NCBI GenBank assembly: GCA_027078545.1
Contig: JALWXN010000004.1
Location: 832,001 to 896,000 of the forward strand
Direction of reading: 5' to 3'
From: Nitrososphaeria archaeon
GTDB lineage: Archaea > Thermoproteota > Nitrososphaeria > Geothermarchaeales > JDFR-13
DNA: 64,000 bases
The notes under the pieces were generated by a model. It saw nothing but the letters and a program-made list of their open reading frames with translations. It ran no database searches and was not told the DNA's origin. Positions within the stretch are counted from its first letter, which is position 1; every line of letters begins with the position of its first letter. A program made the position numbers and the translations under genes. This document shows, piece after piece, positions 32,729 through 41,735 of the stretch.

Positions 32729-34702
32729 CTAGTCCTCCCACTCATCATCGTCGTGGTCATCCTCCTCGTCATCCTCGCCGTGGTCACCACCCATGTATCC
32801 ACCCTGTCCACCTCCTCTCCCATCATCGTCAGACCTATTCTCGTCACCATGCTGATCATCGTCCATCCCGTCCCCAGAGCCGCCCATATCCTCATCTGAC
32901 CAGTCGTCTCCATCGTCCTCCCCATAATCCTCGTCATGACCATCCTCCATATCTCTATCCATAATTATCTCGGCCTGCTCAATCATCTGTTCAGCCTCCA
33001 TGTAGAGCATCCTAGCCTCACTAACCAACTGAAGTGCCTCGGTATAGTTGCCCATCCTAGCCGCCTCGATAGCATTTTCCAGTATAGAGAGTGCCTGGCT
33101 AAGGATATCCGTGGCATTAGTCAGGAGAGCTGCCGCCTCCGAGTTGTTCCGTGACACCGCTCTCTCCCACATCCTCTCGGCCTCATACCTCTTCTCTATG
33201 ATCTCCTCCCTCAGATCAGCTATCTCGCTGAATATCTCGCCAGCCACGTCACCATGTATATCCTCCATGATGTCCTCCGCCATGTCTACCTGCTCCTCAG
33301 CATACTCGTAAAGCCTCTTAGCCTCTAGATACAACTCATATGCATCGACTATCGAGCCGTTATCAAGGGCTGTGAAAGCCATATCGAGCATCATAGATGC
33401 ATTCTCCAGGATCGAGATGCTGCTGTTTAGGAGGGCTATTGATGCGTTGTCACCTAGATCCATGGCACGGCCCAGTAGATATTCAGCCCTAGTCATCACC
33501 TCTGATATATCTAGCCTGAGCTCGTCCATCTCACGGACCAGCCAGTTTATATTGACGCTCTGGTTACCGCCTGGATGCCTAGGCTCCTCAGGCGTTATGT
33601 CTAGTGCGTCGGCGACATCGTCTAGAATGTTCTCTGCATAGTCGATCTTGACCTTCGCAGCCTCTAGATATGCCATGGCGTCTGGAAGCGTCCCGTTGAG
33701 TGCTAGGGCTTCTGCCATGTCTAGATCGCTTGATGCATTGGCTAGATACGTCCTAGCCTCCTCTATCAGTTGGATTAGGTATGTCTTGTTCTGTGCATTG
33801 GCCTCCCCCTCGAGCTGGAGGCTAATGTTTAGTAGCCTCTCTACCTCAACCCTCTCCTCACTAATCTCTATTAGGATCTTCTCAGCCAATGTACTGTTCA
33901 CAGCCTCCTCCACCACGCCTGGCAACGTCTGGTTACCTATCTGCTGAGCCACGTTCTCCAGGATAGCCAGTGTACCGTTCAACGTGGATATAGCTAGGTC
34001 TACAGCCAGTACTGCGGCTGGATCCGCACCCTCATCCGCCAAGTAATCCCTGATCTCGCCTAGGAGATCCATGGCTATCGAGATCCTCTCCATACCCTCC
34101 TCCAGGGTATCTACACCGTCTCCACTCGTGGATAGCTCCCTAACCAGCTCTATAGCCGCCTCCACCAGGTCACTACTTATACCGCTAACTGAGATCTCAT
34201 TCAGAGCCCTGGCCACGTCCTCCAGCTTAGCCAGTGCGGACTCAAGGTTCCCAGCCTCTACATCGGATGCGATGGAGCTGTATAGCTCCTCGATCGATGT
34301 GTAGTTATACTTCTCAGCCACCACCTGTAGGACGCTGAGGACCTCCCTTACAATAGCCTCCTCCACATCCCTCTGATCCAATACATCCTCGGGGAGCGTC
34401 TCCTTCAGATCCTCGAAGTAGCCTGCGAGAATATCCCTGACACTCCTCAACTCGTCTAGGCTTAGCATGGTGAGATCCATAGATGTGATGTTCTCTATGT
34501 AGGCCAGTGCCTCCTGGGCGAGTGACTCGTCAGAAGTTATGTATGCTAGGCGTCTAACCATCTCTACATATACGTTTATCTCCCCGATTACCACGCTCTT
34601 CTCAAGGCTGTCCTCCTGGGCCGCCGAGGGGGTTGGAACCCCTGGGACTAGTCCGACAAGCATCACGAGTAGTAGCCCGATCCCAATCAACACCCTATTC
34701 AT
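32729..34702 (-). CDS. Large secreted alpha-helical repeat protein with an acidic D/E/G/H tail
   Basis: Signal peptide MNRVLIGIG after a GGTGA SD; three repeats of about 95-100 aa; many N-x-S/T sequons. Confidence 0.85.
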   Translation of the reverse strand: MNRVLIGIGLLLVMLVGLVPGVPTPSAAQEDSLEKSVVIGEINVYVEMVRRLAYITSDESLAQEALAYIENITSMDLTMLSLDELRSVRDILAGYFEDLKETLPEDVLDQRDVEEAIVREVLSVLQVVAEKYNYTSIEELYSSIASDVEAGNLESALAKLEDVARALNEISVSGISSDLVEAAIELVRELSTSGDGVDTLEEGMERISIAMDLLGEIRDYLADEGADPAAVLAVDLAISTLNGTLAILENVAQQIGNQTLPGVVEEAVNSTLAEKILIEISEERVEVERLLNISLQLEGEANAQNKTYLIQLIEEARTYLANASSDLDMAEALALNGTLPDAMAYLEAAKVKIDYAENILDDVADALDITPEEPRHPGGNQSVNINWLVREMDELRLDISEVMTRAEYLLGRAMDLGDNASIALLNSSISILENASMMLDMAFTALDNGSIVDAYELYLEAKRLYEYAEEQVDMAEDIMEDIHGDVAGEIFSEIADLREEIIEKRYEAERMWERAVSRNNSEAAALLTNATDILSQALSILENAIEAARMGNYTEALQLVSEARMLYMEAEQMIEQAEIIMDRDMEDGHDEDYGEDDGDDWSDEDMGGSGDGMDDDQHGDENRSDDDGRGGGQGGYMGGDHGEDDEEDDHDDDEWED

Positions 34703-34775
34703 ACGGGTTTCACCGGGTAGGGATAATACGTTCCAACGTATTGAGGACATATGTGGAACACCGCGGAACATGGCT

Positions 34776-35642
34776 TCAGGGCTTCCTGAGTAGGCGGATC
34801 CTATTCCTCCTATACTCCTTGATCACCTCTACGTAGCCGAGCACCTCGAGCCTACGTATATGCCTCCATAGGGTCGTCTTCGGTATACCTAGCCTCCTCA
34901 TCAACTCGCTCTGATACATCTCTCCACCCGCCTCCTCCAGAGCCTCCAGGATCAGGAGGTCGGTCTCGTCTAGGAAGCCGGCCTCCTCCAGGTCTACCTC
35001 ACCTGTTTTGGCGGATCTGTAGCGCCAGGCCAGGAATCCAACAGCGGCTATCGATGCCAGTACGGCAACAAGTACTAGGTTCCAGGGGAGTGGCTCACCA
35101 GCCGTTGGAGGTGACCCCGGCTCAGTAGCCACGTCCGAGACGACGTATCTAATCTCGTATAGCCCCCTGAACTTCACGGTAAAGGTTCCGTCATCGTCGT
35201 AGAAGCTATCGAGTATGGTCTCGGGTAGGCTTAGCAGGACCACCCTGCTGGAAACCCTTAGTGTAGAGTCGTAGCCAGAGTAGTATCTGAATGCCACCCC
35301 CTCGCCCGAGGTGTCGACCTCGGGGATATACTCTATCATGAAGCTCTGGCCAGGCTGACCCGATATAATCACACTATTGTTTATCACCACCGGGGTTCTA
35401 AGCTCCCCCTCCACATATACCACTACAGATGCGGGCGTGGGATCCGCTGGGAGCTGGATCTCCTCAAGATCCCTCTCAAGAGTACCGTTGAGGAATATCT
35501 TGGGAACCCCATCCTCAGTAATCAGTATGGTGCCGGATATCGTGTATCCCCTGGTGGCCCCCATCATTAGGGAGAGGATGGTGATGGCGATCAGGAGGCC
35601 CATAACCATTGAGGCGATGCCGACCCTATTCATAACCACCAC
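34776..35642 (-). CDS. Membrane-anchored transcription regulator (COG2512-like: extracellular beta domain, TM, C-terminal wHTH)
   Basis: Signal peptide, P/T linker, TM and GGEMYQSELMRRLGIPKTTLWRHIRRLEVLGYVEV. Confidence 0.88.
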   Translation of the reverse strand: MVVMNRVGIASMVMGLLIAITILSLMMGATRGYTISGTILITEDGVPKIFLNGTLERDLEEIQLPADPTPASVVVYVEGELRTPVVINNSVIISGQPGQSFMIEYIPEVDTSGEGVAFRYYSGYDSTLRVSSRVVLLSLPETILDSFYDDDGTFTVKFRGLYEIRYVVSDVATEPGSPPTAGEPLPWNLVLVAVLASIAAVGFLAWRYRSAKTGEVDLEEAGFLDETDLLILEALEEAGGEMYQSELMRRLGIPKTTLWRHIRRLEVLGYVEVIKEYRRNRIRLLRKP

Positions 35643-35742
35643 TCATGAGCCATATCCCTATACTTAAATCCCGTCTCGATATAAAGTGGATGTTTCCAAC
35701 AGGTAGCGATTAAAATTATCGTTAAGCATATCATCTAATACT

Positions 35743-36186
35743 ATGACGAGGCCCATCACACTCGACGAGGTAGAGGTCGAGTTTAAAGGTGTAAAACATA
35801 CCTATTCGAGCCAGGGCAGGCCCTACAAACTAGCGGTCAGTGGATGCTGTGGGACATACGTATCCGGCGTCGTCCCTTATTCTAACCAGGGTCTAGTCTC
35901 GAATAACTTTGAGGAGCAGGTGGAGTTCGTCCTAACTGTTATTACCGAGGTAGCCAAAAAGATCGGCGGCTCATGCATAAAGACTGACAAGGAGGCTAAG
36001 AAGTCGATCCTGAAGCTGACGGTATACGTTGTCGACCTCGATAAGGGTAAGTACGATGCTCTAAACCAGGTCTTCAACGACTTCTTCAAGAATGTGGGCT
36101 ACTTCCCGGCTAGGACGACGATTGGTGTGGCCTCGATACCAATCCCTGGTGCACTTGTGGAGATCGATGCCGTACTTGACATCTAG
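35743..36186 (+). CDS. RidA/YjgF family protein
   Basis: YVSG, FEEQ, LKLTVYV, PARTTIGV (catalytic Arg) and GALVEIDAV. Confidence 0.9.
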   Translation: MTRPITLDEVEVEFKGVKHTYSSQGRPYKLAVSGCCGTYVSGVVPYSNQGLVSNNFEEQVEFVLTVITEVAKKIGGSCIKTDKEAKKSILKLTVYVVDLDKGKYDALNQVFNDFFKNVGYFPARTTIGVASIPIPGALVEIDAVLDI

Positions 36187-36207
36187 GGTAGGAGGGGTGT
36201 TAGAGGC

Positions 36208-37089
36208 CTGGCGGGTAGGCTGGACTATCTCCTCCTGGCTGTAGCGGTCGTATCAGTATCATTCGCGGCTATACTCTTCAGGCTATCCGAGGTAGCCGGC
36301 TTCCCAGCCGCGGCATGGAGACTAGGCATAGGTAGTCTAGTCACACTGGTTATACTACTATTCCTAGGCGGGCCGGAGAGGGGGATAAGGCCTAGGGATA
36401 TATTGTTAATGGTTCTTGGAGGCTTGGCACTAGCCCTCCACTTCGGCTTCTGGTTCATAAGCCTCGAGCATATAAGGGTGGGGCCCAGCACATTGATCGT
36501 CGATGCCTACCCAGCCGTGCTAGCGATTATTGGACACATCTTCTTCGGGGAGAGGTATGGATATAGGGATGTGGTCGGCTCCCTACTAGCAATAGTGGGT
36601 CTTGGAGGGATGATAGTAACGACCTATGGATACGAGCTGACAACCCCGGATGGGGACGTTGTCCTAGGCCTCGTGACGGTCCTCATATCCCTAGCCATGG
36701 TGACTACATACTTCATCATCGGGAAGTTTATGAGGCTTAGGATTGGGACCTGGACCTACACCTCAATAGTCTACCCCTCGGCATTCCTAGCCACCCTAGC
36801 AATTACACTGGCGACTGGAGAGTCGTTGATACCCCCGAGCCCCGAGTCCTACATCTACCTTATACTCCTAGGCATAGTCCCGATGATAGGTGGGCACACA
36901 GTCATCAACTACCTACTCCCGAGGCTTAGGAGCCTGACCGTGACTATACCCGTGATAACCGAGCCTATAGGGGCCAGCCTACTCGCATATATCGTGCTTG
37001 GAGAGACACTTCCCTTGGAGGCCTCGGTATGGATCGGGGTAACGGTTATTGGTGTAGGCCTAGTGATATCCTCGGAAGGAGCGGGCTAG
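36208..37089 (+). CDS. DMT/EamA transporter (probable CTG start)
   Basis: The frame is open upstream of the tracked TTG 36403 and encodes the canonical EamA TM1-2 (LLLAVAVVSVSFAAILFRLS...AAWRL). Confidence 0.85.
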   Translation: MAGRLDYLLLAVAVVSVSFAAILFRLSEVAGFPAAAWRLGIGSLVTLVILLFLGGPERGIRPRDILLMVLGGLALALHFGFWFISLEHIRVGPSTLIVDAYPAVLAIIGHIFFGERYGYRDVVGSLLAIVGLGGMIVTTYGYELTTPDGDVVLGLVTVLISLAMVTTYFIIGKFMRLRIGTWTYTSIVYPSAFLATLAITLATGESLIPPSPESYIYLILLGIVPMIGGHTVINYLLPRLRSLTVTIPVITEPIGASLLAYIVLGETLPLEASVWIGVTVIGVGLVISSEGAG

Positions 37090-37138
37090 CGGCTTAGGGG
37101 TCTTCTTTAAAGCAGTTCCTAGGCGATAATATAATTAG

Positions 37139-38371
37139 GTGCTGAGGATGGAGCTGAGCCACGTCCTTCCAGAGGTGGATAGGTACTTTGAGTATGCCCT
37201 CGACACTGTCTATAAATATATCCATAAGACCCCTATGGACTACAGCGCAACCCTCTCCAAGATGGTTGGTGGGGAGGTATACCTGAAGTGTGAGAACCTA
37301 CAGAAGACCGGTAGCTTCAAGGTTAGGGGCGCGATAACAAAGATCTCCAGGCTGAGGGGTAAGACCGAAGGCGTAGTAGCCGTGAGTGCGGGTAACCATG
37401 CACAGGGAGTGGCATATGCAGCCTCTATATACGGCTTGAAATCCATAATCGTCATGCCAAGAGACGCCTCGATATCTAAGGTGGAGGCCACTAAGAACTA
37501 TGGCGGTGAGGTAGTGCTCGCTGAGGGGGGCTTCGGACACCTTTTCCAGCTGGGCTACGAGATCTCTAGGAGCAGGGGGTACGAGTTCGTCCATCCCTAC
37601 GACGACCCCGAGATAATTGCTGGGCAGGGCACACTTGGATGGGAGATCCTTCAGCAGGTGAGCGATGCAGACACGATAGTAGTGCCCATAGGGGGTGGAG
37701 GCCTGATATCAGGCATCTCCTACATAGCGAAGAAGCTCAGGCCCAGTATAAGGATCATAGGGGTCGAGTCAGAGGCCGTGCCCAAGGCCAGTGAGGCGAG
37801 GAAGGCTGGTAGGATAGTCGATGTAGAGGTTAGGCCGACACTGGCGGATGGACTCTCGGCTAAGAGGCTGGGGGAGCTCACGTTCCAGTTCATCGAGAAG
37901 TATGTAGACGAGATCTACACCGTCTCTGAGGAGGCTATTGCGCAGGCGATATACTTTATCCTAGAGAGGAGCAAGATGCTTGTCGAGGGTGCGGGAGCCA
38001 CCACCGTAGCCATGATCTTCGATGGACATGGAGACCTCTTTAGGAATGGGAAGACGGTATTCCTACTATCCGGCGGGAATATAGACCTAACATCGATCTA
38101 CAGAATCCTGCTTAGGGGTCTGAGCGAGGCGAAGAAGATCGTCAGTCTCGAGGGGTATGCACTGGACGTGCCTGGGACACTTGCCAGGATAGCCGGGATA
38201 ATAGCGGAGAAGGGCGGCAACATTGTAGACGTTTTCCACGACCGGATGGATATCTATACACCACCTGGATACACCAACCTAAAGATCATTGTGGAGGTGC
38301 CCAACCCAGAGACGATAGAGGAGATCAAGGAGATGTTGCGCCACTCAGGGATATGGATAAGCAAGGGATGA
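37139..38371 (+). CDS. ilvA: Threonine ammonia-lyase with C-terminal ACT domain
   Basis: KCENLQKTGSFKVRGA (PLP Lys), SAGNHAQG, PIGGGGLISG, LSGGNID and ACT (DVPGTL). Confidence 0.95.
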   Translation: MLRMELSHVLPEVDRYFEYALDTVYKYIHKTPMDYSATLSKMVGGEVYLKCENLQKTGSFKVRGAITKISRLRGKTEGVVAVSAGNHAQGVAYAASIYGLKSIIVMPRDASISKVEATKNYGGEVVLAEGGFGHLFQLGYEISRSRGYEFVHPYDDPEIIAGQGTLGWEILQQVSDADTIVVPIGGGGLISGISYIAKKLRPSIRIIGVESEAVPKASEARKAGRIVDVEVRPTLADGLSAKRLGELTFQFIEKYVDEIYTVSEEAIAQAIYFILERSKMLVEGAGATTVAMIFDGHGDLFRNGKTVFLLSGGNIDLTSIYRILLRGLSEAKKIVSLEGYALDVPGTLARIAGIIAEKGGNIVDVFHDRMDIYTPPGYTNLKIIVEVPNPETIEEIKEMLRHSGIWISKG

Positions 38372-38374
38372 CCA

Positions 38375-39208
38375 CTACTCCCTAAGCCTATACACCCTTC
38401 TCTGACCCTCCCTAACAACCTCTACAACCCCATTCTCAACCAGTTTTGAGAGCCGACGATATAGTGGTGACTTGGGGATACCCGTCTCCTCCATAAGCTC
38501 CGCCGCAGTCATGGGCCTCCTCCTCAAAGCCTCGAGGATCAGCCTATCCCTCTCATCCTCCACCGCCTCCACGAACCTCCTCCTACCCCTATGGAGGATG
38601 AGGAGCGTTGCTCCCGCTGCTATGGCTACAATGAGTATGATTGGTAGCGGGTCTATTCCGCCTGTATCTGCCCCGGCACTCCCGTCGCCACTCTCCTCAC
38701 CACCACCATCTATGGGTGGTGGGCTCATAACATACTCAATCGTGACGTTACCTGGTCCGAAGTCGAGGGCTGGTGAGCTGTTCACAAAGGATATGCCGTA
38801 GTTTTCCCTTGAGACCGATAGGATGATGGTGCCCTCTGGGAGGATTATCCTATAGGGTGTCTCGAACCCTATCTCCAGCCTCCATATCTCGGCCTCCTTC
38901 GAGGTGAGGCCGTAGAAATAGGCCTCTACCCAGACCCTCTCAGAGGTGGATATGAATAGTAGCTCGTCACCCTCCAATAGGTATGGGAGGTCACCCCCCT
39001 CCGTATAGATCCTGACGTGGAACGGCTCCGAGGGCAGCTTGAGCGATACATTTTCGGGAGGCAGGGTTACCAAGTCATAGAGAACCATGACGGATCCGTC
39101 TCTATAAACCTCGACAAGGATATTCCTAACCTGGTATGGATACGCCCCCACAACCGTGGTGGCTATGAGGAGGAGGAGAAGGAGATATAACGTGGGGGCG
39201 AGCCTCAT
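38375..39208 (-). CDS. Second COG2512-like membrane-anchored wHTH regulator
   Basis: Signal peptide, beta domain, G-rich linker, TM and MTAAELMEETGIPKSPLYRRLSKLVENGVVEV. Confidence 0.88.
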   Translation of the reverse strand: MRLAPTLYLLLLLLIATTVVGAYPYQVRNILVEVYRDGSVMVLYDLVTLPPENVSLKLPSEPFHVRIYTEGGDLPYLLEGDELLFISTSERVWVEAYFYGLTSKEAEIWRLEIGFETPYRIILPEGTIILSVSRENYGISFVNSSPALDFGPGNVTIEYVMSPPPIDGGGEESGDGSAGADTGGIDPLPIILIVAIAAGATLLILHRGRRRFVEAVEDERDRLILEALRRRPMTAAELMEETGIPKSPLYRRLSKLVENGVVEVVREGQRRVYRLRE

Positions 39209-39228
39209 GTAAAAAGGGATTGGGTGGG

Positions 39229-40584
39229 TCAGCTATATTTCGCTAGGAGCTCGTCAACCCTCTGTATAAGGCTGTCTAGGTACTTGATGACGAAGTCGGG
39301 TATGTTGGGATAGCGTGAAAGCCTATCCCTAAGCTCGAGGAGCCCCTCCCTAATCATCCCAAGCTGGACTATTAGGTACTCCCTGGTTATCTCACCAGCC
39401 TCGTACTTCCTGACAAGCTCATCGATCCTCTCCTCGAACTGTCTAAGCATTGAGAGGAACTGGTTGGCCAGCCTATCCATACCACCCCTGATCCTCCTAA
39501 TCTCCTCCCTGATAAACTCCTTCATCTCCTCCAGCCTCTCCAGCACGGGCATGGGCACTGGTATACCTAGGCCTGGGAGCTCCTCCATGAGACCCTCAAG
39601 CCTGTTCAACGCCTGCTCCAGAGTAGCCAGCGCAGCCTCCACATCACCGTTGTCGAGGCTCTCGATAGCGCTGTCGACGAGGCTCTTGACATCCCTCATA
39701 ACCTCAACCACGTCTATAGCCTTCCTCCTAACCTTCTCATCGACACCGATCTCTACACCCTTCTCCGCTATCCTCTCGGCCCTCTCGATAAACTCGCCTA
39801 TGAGGCTCGATAGGAGGGCTAGACGTGCCCTGGCCTCGTTTATCTGGCCATCATTGATCAGGTTTATCGAGCTGTTTATCTCGGCCATGACCTTCATAAC
39901 GAAGGCCATGGTTATGGTGCCTGCAACCATCTGTAGGCTTATCGATGCCCAGTCCCTCCTGAGGCTCTGCCTAATACTCATTATAAGCTCCTCCAGCCTC
40001 TGATCAATCTCCCGGAGCCTCTCCATAGCTGCCTCAGGCCCTATCTCGTCGACCTCATCCATCAGCTGGAGCAGCTCGTCCCTAGCCTCCCTGAGATCAG
40101 CTATTATCTCGTCTATATTGATGTCGATACAGTAACCGGTGGAGGCGGCTCCACATACTACTCCAGACTCCTTCATCCTCTCAGCGGCCTCGATGGCCGA
40201 CTCCACTATCCTCAGCCTGACACTTATAGCTGCCATAACTGCCTCTACATCCAGGGTCTCCTCTGGGGGTGCGACGGTATAGACATACTTGATCACTGGG
40301 GCGAGGAGTGTGCCTGCCTTTATGAGCATGTCGACAGCCTCCTCCTCATCAGCCTCCCTGGCCTGGCTCACGAGGCTCTTGGCCTCCTCCAGATTAGCCT
40401 GTAGATCCTCTGGGAGGGATATGTTATGTGCCTCGATGTACTGCTCAAGCCTCTCAATAAGCCTCTCCATATACTCGATATACTTGTCTATAGGCCTCTC
40501 CGCACCGATCACAGAAGTATTTATCAAGACCCCGCTAAGCACGAGCGCCAGCAGCGTCACAGCCGAGAGTAGTCTATACATCAT
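39229..40584 (-). CDS. Secreted alpha-helical bundle protein
   Basis: Signal peptide MMYRLLSAVTLL after a GGTGAG SD; amphipathic helices; one Cys pair. The ORF is open from 40674. Confidence 0.85.
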   Translation of the reverse strand: MMYRLLSAVTLLALVLSGVLINTSVIGAERPIDKYIEYMERLIERLEQYIEAHNISLPEDLQANLEEAKSLVSQAREADEEEAVDMLIKAGTLLAPVIKYVYTVAPPEETLDVEAVMAAISVRLRIVESAIEAAERMKESGVVCGAASTGYCIDINIDEIIADLREARDELLQLMDEVDEIGPEAAMERLREIDQRLEELIMSIRQSLRRDWASISLQMVAGTITMAFVMKVMAEINSSINLINDGQINEARARLALLSSLIGEFIERAERIAEKGVEIGVDEKVRRKAIDVVEVMRDVKSLVDSAIESLDNGDVEAALATLEQALNRLEGLMEELPGLGIPVPMPVLERLEEMKEFIREEIRRIRGGMDRLANQFLSMLRQFEERIDELVRKYEAGEITREYLIVQLGMIREGLLELRDRLSRYPNIPDFVIKYLDSLIQRVDELLAKYS

Positions 40585-40624
40585 TGTACTACTCACCGTT
40601 GATATGTGTGGCCGGCTTCCTATT

Positions 40625-41284
40625 TTAGGGAGCCAGTGGGAATAGGATGGGAAGATAGTGGGAAATCCTCTCAAGCCCCCTCTCAGCCGATGCCTCCCTA
40701 GCGGAGAGCCTCCTCCCTAGGATCGCGAAGATATTGGCCAGTAGTGTAAGGCTCAATGTGGGGGACACAACTGGCCGGAGGGTGGTGCTGAGCGTCTCTG
40801 GGCTTCCCAAGACACTTATCGAGACAGCCACGCCTACCGATAGGCCGGGCCCTATAGAGCCGCCCAGCCCTATGAGTAGGAGGGAGTAGACTATCGTCAG
40901 GACCATCCCGGTCAGGGATGGGAGTTTGAATCCTATCAGCTCCCTGGAGAGCCTCCTATCCCTGACCAGCGAGCCTGCCACGAGTGAGAGCCCAGCAGCT
41001 GCATAGGAGAGCTTTGAGGAGATGTAGAGATAGCTGAGTATGGGCATCTCGCCGCTCGAACCGAAGAGTAGTATAGAGACCCTGTCGAAGCCGAAGGATA
41101 CCTCACCGGCCTCCGAGGCCAGCTTGACGAGTGGCCCCCCGAAAAGCACTAGGTATAGGGTTATCAGGCCGGAGAGGAGGGCCGGGACATTTATATGCCC
41201 CAGGTAGAAGACCCTCTCTAGCAGCGTCTTATCACGAGACGGAGATGTATCCGGTGAACTCGACCCTCCTGACGAATACCTCAC
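40625..41284 (-). CDS. Hypothetical membrane protein (start uncertain)
   Basis: About 4 hydrophobic segments; co-oriented in the cluster. Confidence 0.65.
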   Translation of the reverse strand: MRYSSGGSSSPDTSPSRDKTLLERVFYLGHINVPALLSGLITLYLVLFGGPLVKLASEAGEVSFGFDRVSILLFGSSGEMPILSYLYISSKLSYAAAGLSLVAGSLVRDRRLSRELIGFKLPSLTGMVLTIVYSLLLIGLGGSIGPGLSVGVAVSISVLGSPETLSTTLRPVVSPTLSLTLLANIFAILGRRLSAREASAERGLERISHYLPILFPLAP

Positions 41285-41735
41285 CCTGATACTCCACCTC
41301 CATGTACAACACTATGTTCACGTCATACCTACCCTTGGCGAACTGGGAGGCAGGTATCCCAAGCTCCACGGGGATCTCGAAGCTCAACGACTTACCAGCC
41401 TCTAGGGTGCCAAGATCCATGTCTAGGGACACGTCTTGTGAGAGTCGGAGCTCTGCACCTGTAGGATCGACACTTGAGATGTTTACACTCGCATTGATAA
41501 CCTTGAGACCGAACTCCCTGTTACCTGTGTTAAGGGCCTTGACGACGAGGAGCATCTTCGAGTCCTCGATAATCATGTCCTCCAGCCGGAACTCCGCCTC
41601 TATACGTATCGTCTCGAAGTCGAGCTGTAGAAACCTCTGTATATCGAAGTCGACGAGGTAGAGCCCATAGAGTATGGGGGCCGCGAACATAATGATGAGT
41701 ATAATGTTGACTAATTTTGATACATGGCTAGACAC
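41232..41735 (-). CDS. Membrane-anchored beta-sandwich protein (LEA_2/WHy-like)
   Basis: N-terminal TM; VKALNTGN...LEAGKS pattern of Ig/LEA-like folds. Confidence 0.65.
   Translation of the reverse strand: MSSHVSKLVNIILIIMFAAPILYGLYLVDFDIQRFLQLDFETIRIEAEFRLEDMIIEDSKMLLVVKALNTGNREFGLKVINASVNISSVDPTGAELRLSQDVSLDMDLGTLEAGKSLSFEIPVELGIPASQFAKGRYDVNIVLYMEVEYQGEVFVRRVEFTGYISVS

Follow-up and report, generated by a model that had tools for sequence, protein, structure and literature searches.

A stretch of 64,000 nucleotides from the genome of a Nitrososphaeria archaeon (contig JALWXN010000004.1, positions 832,001 to 896,000; hereafter the window) contains two pairs of adjacent genes, regA with helA and regB with helB, in which each reg gene codes for a predicted membrane-tethered regulator with a winged helix-turn-helix (wHTH) domain and each hel gene for a secreted, helix-rich protein. 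Phased repeats are located just upstream of the TATA element at each hel promoter, and these repeats, which are new, are retained in other genera and practically absent from the rest of the genome (a 1.24-Mb assembly, 92% complete, with 1334 open reading frames (ORFs)). With somewhat more confidence than doubt, we favour the reading that each Reg/Hel pair represents a self-contained trans-membrane regulatory module, in which Hel is both the output and the extracellular partner of Reg. The initial annotation of the window had interpreted the helical protein as the output and/or extracellular partner of a one-component system, and as a working model this interpretation is supported by the adjacency of the genes, by a model of the complex and by the promoter repeats.

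Regulators and candidate operators

The helA promoter on the minus strand carries two copies of TGTTCC with a period of 10 bp (34770-34765 and 34760-34755) and an inverted GGAAC (34734-34730), which abuts a weak TATA-like element (TATTAT, 34728-34723). At helB, likewise on the minus strand, three copies of TTCCCA follow each other with a period of 11 bp (40664-40637; plus-strand TGGGAA at 40637, 40648 and 40659), the last of which ends 9 nt before the TATA element TAAAATA (40627-40621), and this candidate operator is embedded in the 3'-terminal part of the 219-aa ORF that precedes helB. Within family f1, the arrays recur at the orthologues of three other genomes (G003, G008 and G012), where helA has two to three copies of TGTTCC at 10-11 bp before a TTAATATA-type box and helB has three to four copies of TTCCCA/TTCCC directly before the TATA box, the flanks having diverged in both cases. 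The phased TTCCCA triple occurs once in the 1.24-Mb genome, at helB, compared to an expectation of ~5e-4 by chance, which is our own estimate from the genome hexamer count. Elsewhere in the genome there is one phased TGTTCC pair (C4:578518-578534), located antisense within the first codons of the aEF-2 gene, inside the coding sequence; it was judged to be a chance occurrence. Since the arrays are essentially unique, each regulator would have essentially one target.

The same class of motif is found beyond these orthologues. In one large family of the class (f6; loci L029-L031 and L046-L056), whose members have AT-rich genomes of 1.6 Mb, as many genomes of this class do, reg belongs to a compact operon of three genes, for an HTH_45 protein, Reg and Hel, whose stop and start codons overlap. 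The first gene product is a soluble winged-helix protein of 95 aa with a nearly invariant N-terminus, of which a distant homologue is encoded in the genome under study (C4:390436-390669). Upstream of this operon, the highly conserved direct repeat GTTCCGCT-N4-GTTCCGCT is present at 10 of the 12 loci with a small first gene, and the remaining two have either three GTTTC direct repeats or a single copy. Other families and classes show the palindromes GGAACG-N2-CGTTCC or GAAAC-N4-5-GTTTC, after which a third (G/A)TTCC typically comes, directly next to the TATA box. As a control, we searched all fetched loci for the motif class in the 120 nt preceding each ORF of 100 aa or more. It was found upstream of 14 of the 35 Reg-adjacent hel genes (most of the misses are f6 hel genes, which are operon-internal), compared to 9 of 531 other genes. 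Most of these nine are themselves associated with the module, as they are f6 first genes, code for borderline Hel proteins or share the same intergenic region. Upstream of reg itself the motif class is found in 3 of 58 cases. The initial annotation had wanted its idea checked by promoter binding; as a stand-in, these conserved repeats, phased and specific to the module, which closely precede the TATA boxes of hel, argue for it.

Two genomes from two families, G042 (L042, 6873-8747) and G163 (L044, 6943-8820), carry a gene convergent with reg that encodes a secreted protein of ~625 aa, for which no sequence similarity to Hel could be detected. Nevertheless, the GGAACG-N2-CGTTCC palindrome is located before this gene too, which gives the impression that one output gene has been replaced by another.

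Both Reg proteins contain a wHTH at the C-terminus (about residues 218-285), which is matched in Pfam by HTH_24 (3.4e-11) and HTH_20 (7.9e-10), both above their cut-offs; the ectodomains, i.e. the first ~200 residues, have no family above cut-off in Pfam and NCBIfam. In an AlphaFold2 model of RegA (mean predicted local distance difference test (pLDDT) 81), an N-terminal hydrophobic helix (5-28) is followed by a beta domain (36-168, pLDDT about 90), a disordered linker (169-186), a transmembrane helix (187-212) and the wHTH (226-284). Transmembrane segments predicted from hydrophobicity (~187-212 in RegA and ~190-208 in RegB) are modelled as helix and have basic residues on the wHTH side, and signal peptides were called from hydrophobic N-termini and A-x-A-like sites. 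Pfam and the model therefore agree with the architecture read from the sequence at the outset, namely signal peptide, beta ectodomain, linker, transmembrane segment and wHTH. The wHTH of RegA superimposes on MarR/ArsR-type structures (Z 11.4, root-mean-square deviation 1.5 Å over 68 residues), and the closest of these are DNA-bound MarR-type proteins; by sequence, the nearest relatives are archaeal Lrp/AsnC-type HTH domains.

A BLASTP match between RegA and RegB is confined to the wHTH (47% over 60 aa). Similarity over the full length emerges with HMMER and from a family alignment of 20 sequences, in which ectodomain motifs are common to both proteins, and on this sequence evidence RegA and RegB, which had been called paralogous at the outset, are paralogues over their full length. 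Their recognition helices differ: the RegA lineage has TT-L-W-R-H-I-R-R-L-E (TTLWRHI), which is common to most of the family, and the RegB lineage has (S/T)-P-L-Y-R-R-L. The family-common helix thus goes along with the common GTTCC core in the RegA lineage, and the altered helix with the shifted TTCCCA repeat in the RegB lineage, a covariation between helix and operator that would be expected if the helices read the repeats and that comprises two lineages only.

In a quick maximum-likelihood tree, the orthologues of RegA and of RegB form separate, well-supported clades, each of which includes both genera of the family, and the duplication therefore predates the split of these genera. Both clades group with long-branched sequences of other classes and not with the rest of their own class, which could reflect gene transfer or long-branch attraction.

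Conserved pairing, the Hel family and a predicted complex

The Reg profile matches 237 of 301 genomes of the class, a tally which takes in the unpublished genomes G131, G230 and G282, although none of the examined loci comes from those three. The family is also present in 76 of 151 sampled genomes of other classes of the phylum (E ≤ 1e-25), comprises 504 representative clusters at E ≤ 1e-30 and can be aligned along its full length, the ectodomain included. To classify neighbouring genes, we called a protein secreted and helix-rich if it had at least 200 aa, an N-terminal hydrophobic segment without a strong later one and at least 45% A/E/L/M/R/K/Q. By this definition, 9 of the 1334 ORFs of the genome (0.7%) qualify, including HelA and HelB. 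Against this background, a survey of one or two loci per genus revealed a secreted helix-rich protein as immediate neighbour of Reg in about 19 of 25 genera and 9 of 10 families of the class, and two apparent misses in genus g1 are due to a contig end and to threshold rounding. In other classes of the phylum, such a neighbour was found at 9 of 19 sampled loci, with three to four more being borderline. The counts ignore the kinship of the genomes and therefore overstate formal statistics, but they agree with the enrichment of secreted helical neighbours for which the initial annotation had suggested looking, and as judged from gene neighbourhoods the association of reg and hel spans the phylum.

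Both pairs are found with unchanged order and orientation in a second genus of the same family, at protein identities of 22-38% and with different intervening genes, and HelA orthologues adjoin RegA orthologues in G002, G003, G008 and G012. Across the survey, the position of the partner relative to reg varies between upstream, downstream, divergent and convergent, so that co-transcription alone does not explain the linkage. At one locus from another family of the same order (L032, G014:C7, 10752-11939), a third gene follows that of a 740-aa Hel; its product combines a Reg-like ectodomain (7e-28 to the Reg profile) with bacterial Ig-like domains (Big_7, 3.2e-11, and Big_13) and a C-terminal transmembrane segment and has no wHTH.

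HelA is strongly acidic (154 D+E vs 40 K+R), has a C-terminal tail of ~70 residues rich in D, E, G and H and contains 18 N-X-S/T sequons, i.e. 2.74 per 100 aa compared to a proteome mean of 0.27 and a 99th percentile of 1.65, a density that fits an extracellular glycoprotein. HelB is modelled with 13 helices after its hydrophobic N-terminus (pLDDT 71). Of the claim that both partners are secreted and all-alpha, the first half holds for both proteins, which are also both helix-rich; the all-alpha fold comes from the HelB model, and HelA is helix-rich by composition. Neither protein has a family above cut-off in Pfam or NCBIfam. An assignment of HelB to YfdX (PF10938) was rejected, as the match reached 19.6 bits against a gathering cut-off of 26.6 bits over one stretch of 36 residues, and as a Salmonella YfdX chain appeared at rank 50 of the fold search with a template modelling score (TM-score) of 0.38. 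Comparison of the HelB model with structures in the Protein Data Bank (PDB) gave no match at E ≤ 0.001 and otherwise generic helical bundles; a search of the ESM Atlas by shape gave no covering row above a TM-score of 0.5, and language-model features placed HelB near unnamed Nitrososphaerota clusters (0.86), which we regard as a lead only. Word-based homologue searches returned four matches for RegB and two for HelB, none of them named, and cluster look-ups were likewise nameless.

A direct BLASTP comparison of HelA with HelB is not significant (E 0.12). However, a profile-profile comparison relates the two with 78% probability, 30 of 34 Reg-adjacent helical proteins fall into one network (phmmer, E < 1e-3) in which the chains from HelA to HelB run via members from other families, and the Hel proteins of other genomes find significant matches among the 1334 ORFs only in HelA and HelB. 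From this we conclude that HelA and HelB are likely to be very divergent members of one fast-evolving family, linked via intermediates. The description of the locus as a duplicated cassette is therefore firm for the reg genes and, resting on profiles and intermediate sequences, probable for the hel genes. In one Reg-adjacent Hel homologue (L045, G284:C1, 4376-5980), a zinc-protease motif of the matrixin type is located close to the C-terminus (Peptidase_M10, 1.5e-9, residues 451-489), which hints that some members of the Hel family have an enzymatic end.

A complex was modelled for one cognate pair, consisting of the RegB ectodomain (residues 22-170) and mature HelB (residues 30-451), based on our own alignments. 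The interface score ipSAE was 0.83 (0.82, 0.84 and 0.83 in individual runs), compared to 0.00, 0.49 and 0.00 for the controls, and the cognate pair exceeds the best control in this stand-in for the interface check that had been proposed earlier. In the calibration of the tool, the pass mark is reached by 58 of 80 solved complexes and by 2 of 110 mismatched pairs, counts that are only roughly valid in our case, owing to the use of our own alignments. Contacts agree between runs to at least 88%, the partner pLDDT is at least 82, and ~150 predicted contacts connect the N-terminal half of HelB (31-279) with several beta strands of the ectodomain. We know of no similar complex, and recall of a solved structure by the model is therefore unlikely. 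The prediction supports binding of HelB by the RegB ectodomain.

A possible feedback module and competing explanations

In the mechanism that we propose, Reg would be a type-I membrane protein, with the beta-sandwich ectodomain outside the cell and the MarR/ArsR-type winged helix at the inner face of the membrane. It would stay in the membrane, probably as an oligomer, would bind the repeats and would control transcription of hel and, in module B, also of regB, which is apparently co-transcribed with helB. Because the repeats are phased by 10-12 bp, several Reg copies could be bound on one face of the DNA. Reg is probably an activator of hel, which we propose because the sites are located upstream of the TATA element and because the helA box is weak in this genome. 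Secreted Hel would then bind the Reg ectodomain via its N-terminal half and close a feedback loop, whose input would be any process at the cell surface that titrates Hel, alters it or takes it away and so changes the amount or the state of free Hel. Modules A and B appear to be insulated from each other, in that RegA would read TGTTCC and RegB TTCCCA, with recognition helices that differ correspondingly. A target that is kept beside reg in any orientation would also fit a factor which is inserted in the membrane near its own gene.

Several points weigh against this interpretation. Our literature search found no measured DNA binding, protein binding or expression for any member of the family, and it is an assumption, by analogy with similar regulators of bacteria, that a membrane-held factor reaches the DNA in this organism. 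The score of the complex is the model's own confidence and was obtained with shallow alignments (7 rows for HelB), and the residues at the predicted interface are not more conserved than the rest of each protein (P 0.83 and 0.21), which in itself is neutral. The helicity of most Hel neighbours was judged by a crude composition proxy, HelB being the one with a structure model. Family f9 and genus g15 of family f8 have Reg without any Hel neighbour. Finally, the HTH_45 gene that heads the f6 operon, together with its distant homologue in this genome, indicates that another factor could read the repeats.

The alternative that survives best, although we consider it unlikely, is that Hel is a regulated target and nothing else, i.e. 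that Reg controls hel via the repeats, while its ectodomain responds to something other than Hel, be it a small molecule, a glycan or a component of the envelope, and Hel has a separate role at the surface. The operator evidence is silent on contact between the two proteins, and the ordinary conservation of the interface residues as well as the lineages with Reg but lacking a Hel neighbour would be in line with such a division of tasks, as would the palindrome before the unrelated secreted 625-aa protein of G042 and G163, which fits an exchangeable output. A partnership is favoured, however, by the complex model, which passes its controls with a large interface, and by the fact that the pairing survives very deep divergence of both proteins in all gene orientations.

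A second alternative, to which we assign a low probability, is that Reg works only once freed, regulated proteolysis in or near the transmembrane segment releasing the wHTH as a soluble factor and Hel either protecting Reg or exposing it to cleavage. The long disordered linker outside the transmembrane segment and a low-confidence stretch of 13 residues between the transmembrane helix and the wHTH would be in line with this, and protection from proteolysis by a partner is the model for ToxS/ToxR and TcpH/TcpP (PMC9214523). Yet no conserved protease gene was found in the neighbourhoods examined, and a target beside reg in every orientation would, in our view, suit a tethered factor and not a freely diffusing one.

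Less credible still is that another soluble factor, e.g. the HTH_45 protein of f6, reads the repeats, with Reg and Hel joined in a complex of structural or surface function and the wHTH serving some purpose other than transcription. In its favour, the small HTH_45 gene comes first in the operon, directly downstream of the repeats, at nearly all f6 loci, and a distant homologue is encoded in this genome. Outside f6, however, no second DNA-binding gene accompanies the module, although the same motif class is located before hel; moreover, the operator differs along with the Reg recognition helix in the two paralogues of family f1, and the C-terminal domain of Reg is a canonical DNA-binding wHTH that is nearest to DNA-bound MarR-type structures. 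That the adjacency is fortuitous and the repeats are due to chance is highly improbable, considering a background of 0.7% against about three quarters of the sampled genera and a phased TTCCCA triple that is hardly expected, was found once, precisely at helB, and is conserved in other genera.

The model of the Reg ectodomain resembles the N-terminal beta domain of M1 aminopeptidases and a subunit of oligosaccharyltransferase (OST) of ~560-580 residues (Foldseek E ~1e-5 to 2e-5), with TM-scores that are low when normalised to the whole model. We take OST chains of this length to be ribophorin I (OST1); the Ribophorin_I profile PF04597 has no match anywhere in the genome, even at E ≤ 10. The likeness of the modelled ectodomain to ribophorin I and M1 aminopeptidase is one of fold only, and a shared fold shows no function. 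A speculative idea, which we hold with little expectation, is that the ribophorin-I-like ectodomain follows how its own secreted, sequon-rich partner is folded or N-glycosylated and, from its place in the membrane, passes this on directly to the promoter of the partner gene, as part of an ancient surface surveillance across Thermoproteota. If true, archaea would have an equivalent of envelope-stress or unfolded-protein feedback, and one that might be related in evolution to a subunit of the machinery for glycosylation in eukaryotes.

How signals cross the archaeal envelope is poorly understood, and although archaeal transcription factors tethered to the membrane have been counted, hardly any has been investigated. 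About four fifths of the genomes sampled from this class encode a Reg protein, as do half of those sampled from the phylum. The abundant marine ammonia oxidisers seem to belong to the class, and cultured ones apparently to family f6. Since the partner and the operator are predicted and there is apparently a single target, the circuit could be tested with few proteins and two short DNA probes, and the duplication provides a built-in test of specificity, since the paralogous regulators have different recognition helices, repeat motifs and partners. Within a widespread uncharacterised family, these duplicated and mutually diverged copies thus represent an unusually clean test system.

Known systems and gene layout

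Bacterial co-component transmembrane regulators include ToxR/ToxS, TcpP/TcpH, VtrA/VtrC and PsaE/PsaF (Kinch et al. 2022, PMC9214523). Like these, Reg is a single-pass membrane protein with a winged-helix DNA-binding domain that would be inside the cell; the product of an adjacent gene (often overlapping) is extracytoplasmic, evolves fast and pairs with the outer domain, here as a prediction; and direct-repeat operators, here candidates, as well as a target or partner gene beside the regulator are shared features. In contrast to ToxR and CadC, which are oriented N-in/C-out with a C-terminal periplasmic sensor, the topology of Reg is reversed, with signal peptide, N-terminal ectodomain, transmembrane segment and C-terminal wHTH. 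This wHTH is of the MarR/ArsR/IclR/Lrp type and not of the OmpR/PhoB type, and Trans_reg_C has no match in the Reg proteins at E ≤ 0.1. VtrA and VtrC form an extracytoplasmic heterodimer, to which the RegB/HelB model would correspond as a prediction only (0.83 vs 0.49 for the best control), but Hel is a secreted protein of 450-650 aa (all-alpha with 13 helices in the HelB model) and not a membrane-anchored lipocalin beta-barrel. The host is an archaeon with a promoter consisting of TATA and B recognition element (BRE), and archaea are not mentioned by Kinch et al. 2022 (PMC9214523). The comparison with ToxR/ToxS or CadC that the initial annotation had drawn is therefore one of analogy and not of homology: the likeness in working holds, while membership in the same class is contradicted by the reversed topology, the MarR/ArsR-like wHTH and the all-alpha partner.

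The feedback logic is also like that of CpxP and CpxA. In E. coli, CpxP is a secreted all-alpha protein that is encoded beside the signalling genes, is a regulated output, binds the outer domain of the sensor CpxA and thereby conveys in what state the envelope is. Cpx, in contrast, is a two-component phosphorelay, and its response regulator is soluble. No relation in sequence or fold was found between Cpx and Reg or Hel, and the Pfam scan gave no match to a CpxP-type family. In its working, the module would thus most resemble the co-component regulators and, regarding the feedback logic, CpxP/CpxA, without being a member of either.

Reg falls within the working definition of transmembrane transcription regulators (TTRs) used in the available part of a census by Demey et al. 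2023 (PMC10269533), i.e. a predicted DNA-binding domain and at least one transmembrane region. That part of the census gives about 4 TTRs per archaeal genome, states that the known archaeal TTRs regulate motility and pilin genes and contains no description of this ectodomain, of a secreted partner or of this operator. In the literature on COG2512, on membrane-bound regulators of Nitrosopumilus and on archaeal membrane-tethered factors we found no study of this family.

All four ORFs of the initial annotation are present, on the minus strand throughout (Table 1), and the gene order on this strand agrees with its statement that the helical gene is located once upstream and once downstream of a co-oriented regulator. 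In the direction of transcription, helB precedes regB with a gap of 20 nt, and further on regA precedes helA with a gap of 73 nt. Because the gap is only 20 nt, helB and regB are probably co-transcribed. The lengths of 657 aa for HelA and 451 aa for HelB are the forms recorded in public collections.

Table 1 The reg and hel genes and their candidate promoter elements (positions in the window).
Feature	Position	Strand	Description
helA	32729-34702	minus	657 aa from the MNRV start; secreted, very acidic, sequon-rich and helix-rich, with a D/E/G/H-rich C-terminal tail
helA promoter and candidate operator	34723-34770	minus	TGTTCC x2, inverted GGAAC, weak TATA-like TATTAT
regA	34776-35642	minus	288 aa; predicted type-I membrane-tethered wHTH protein; alternative ATG start at 35633 possible
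regB	38375-39208	minus	277 aa; regA paralogue by sequence, same predicted architecture, diverged recognition helix; exact product in public collections
helB	39229-40584	minus	451 aa; secreted, all-alpha in the model
helB promoter and candidate operator	40621-40664	minus	TTCCCA x3, then TATA element TAAAATA

Directly upstream of helB, two overlapping genes are located on the minus strand, which encode a multi-spanning membrane protein of 219 aa (40625-41284) and a protein of 167 aa with one N-terminal transmembrane segment (41232-41735). Neither product has a Pfam or NCBIfam family above cut-off, and the two genes accompany the module in the same genus (G002 and G003) and not in genus g5.

The regA and regB genes are 3 kb apart, and between the two pairs there are three unrelated genes on the plus strand, which code for a RidA-like protein, an EamA-type transporter and a threonine dehydratase. 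The ORF of the EamA-type transporter (36403-37089, plus strand; TTG start, 228 aa) is probably longer, since the orthologue in G002 has 284 aa and starts further upstream, and an 88-aa ORF on the minus strand (36225-36491) would therefore be spurious.

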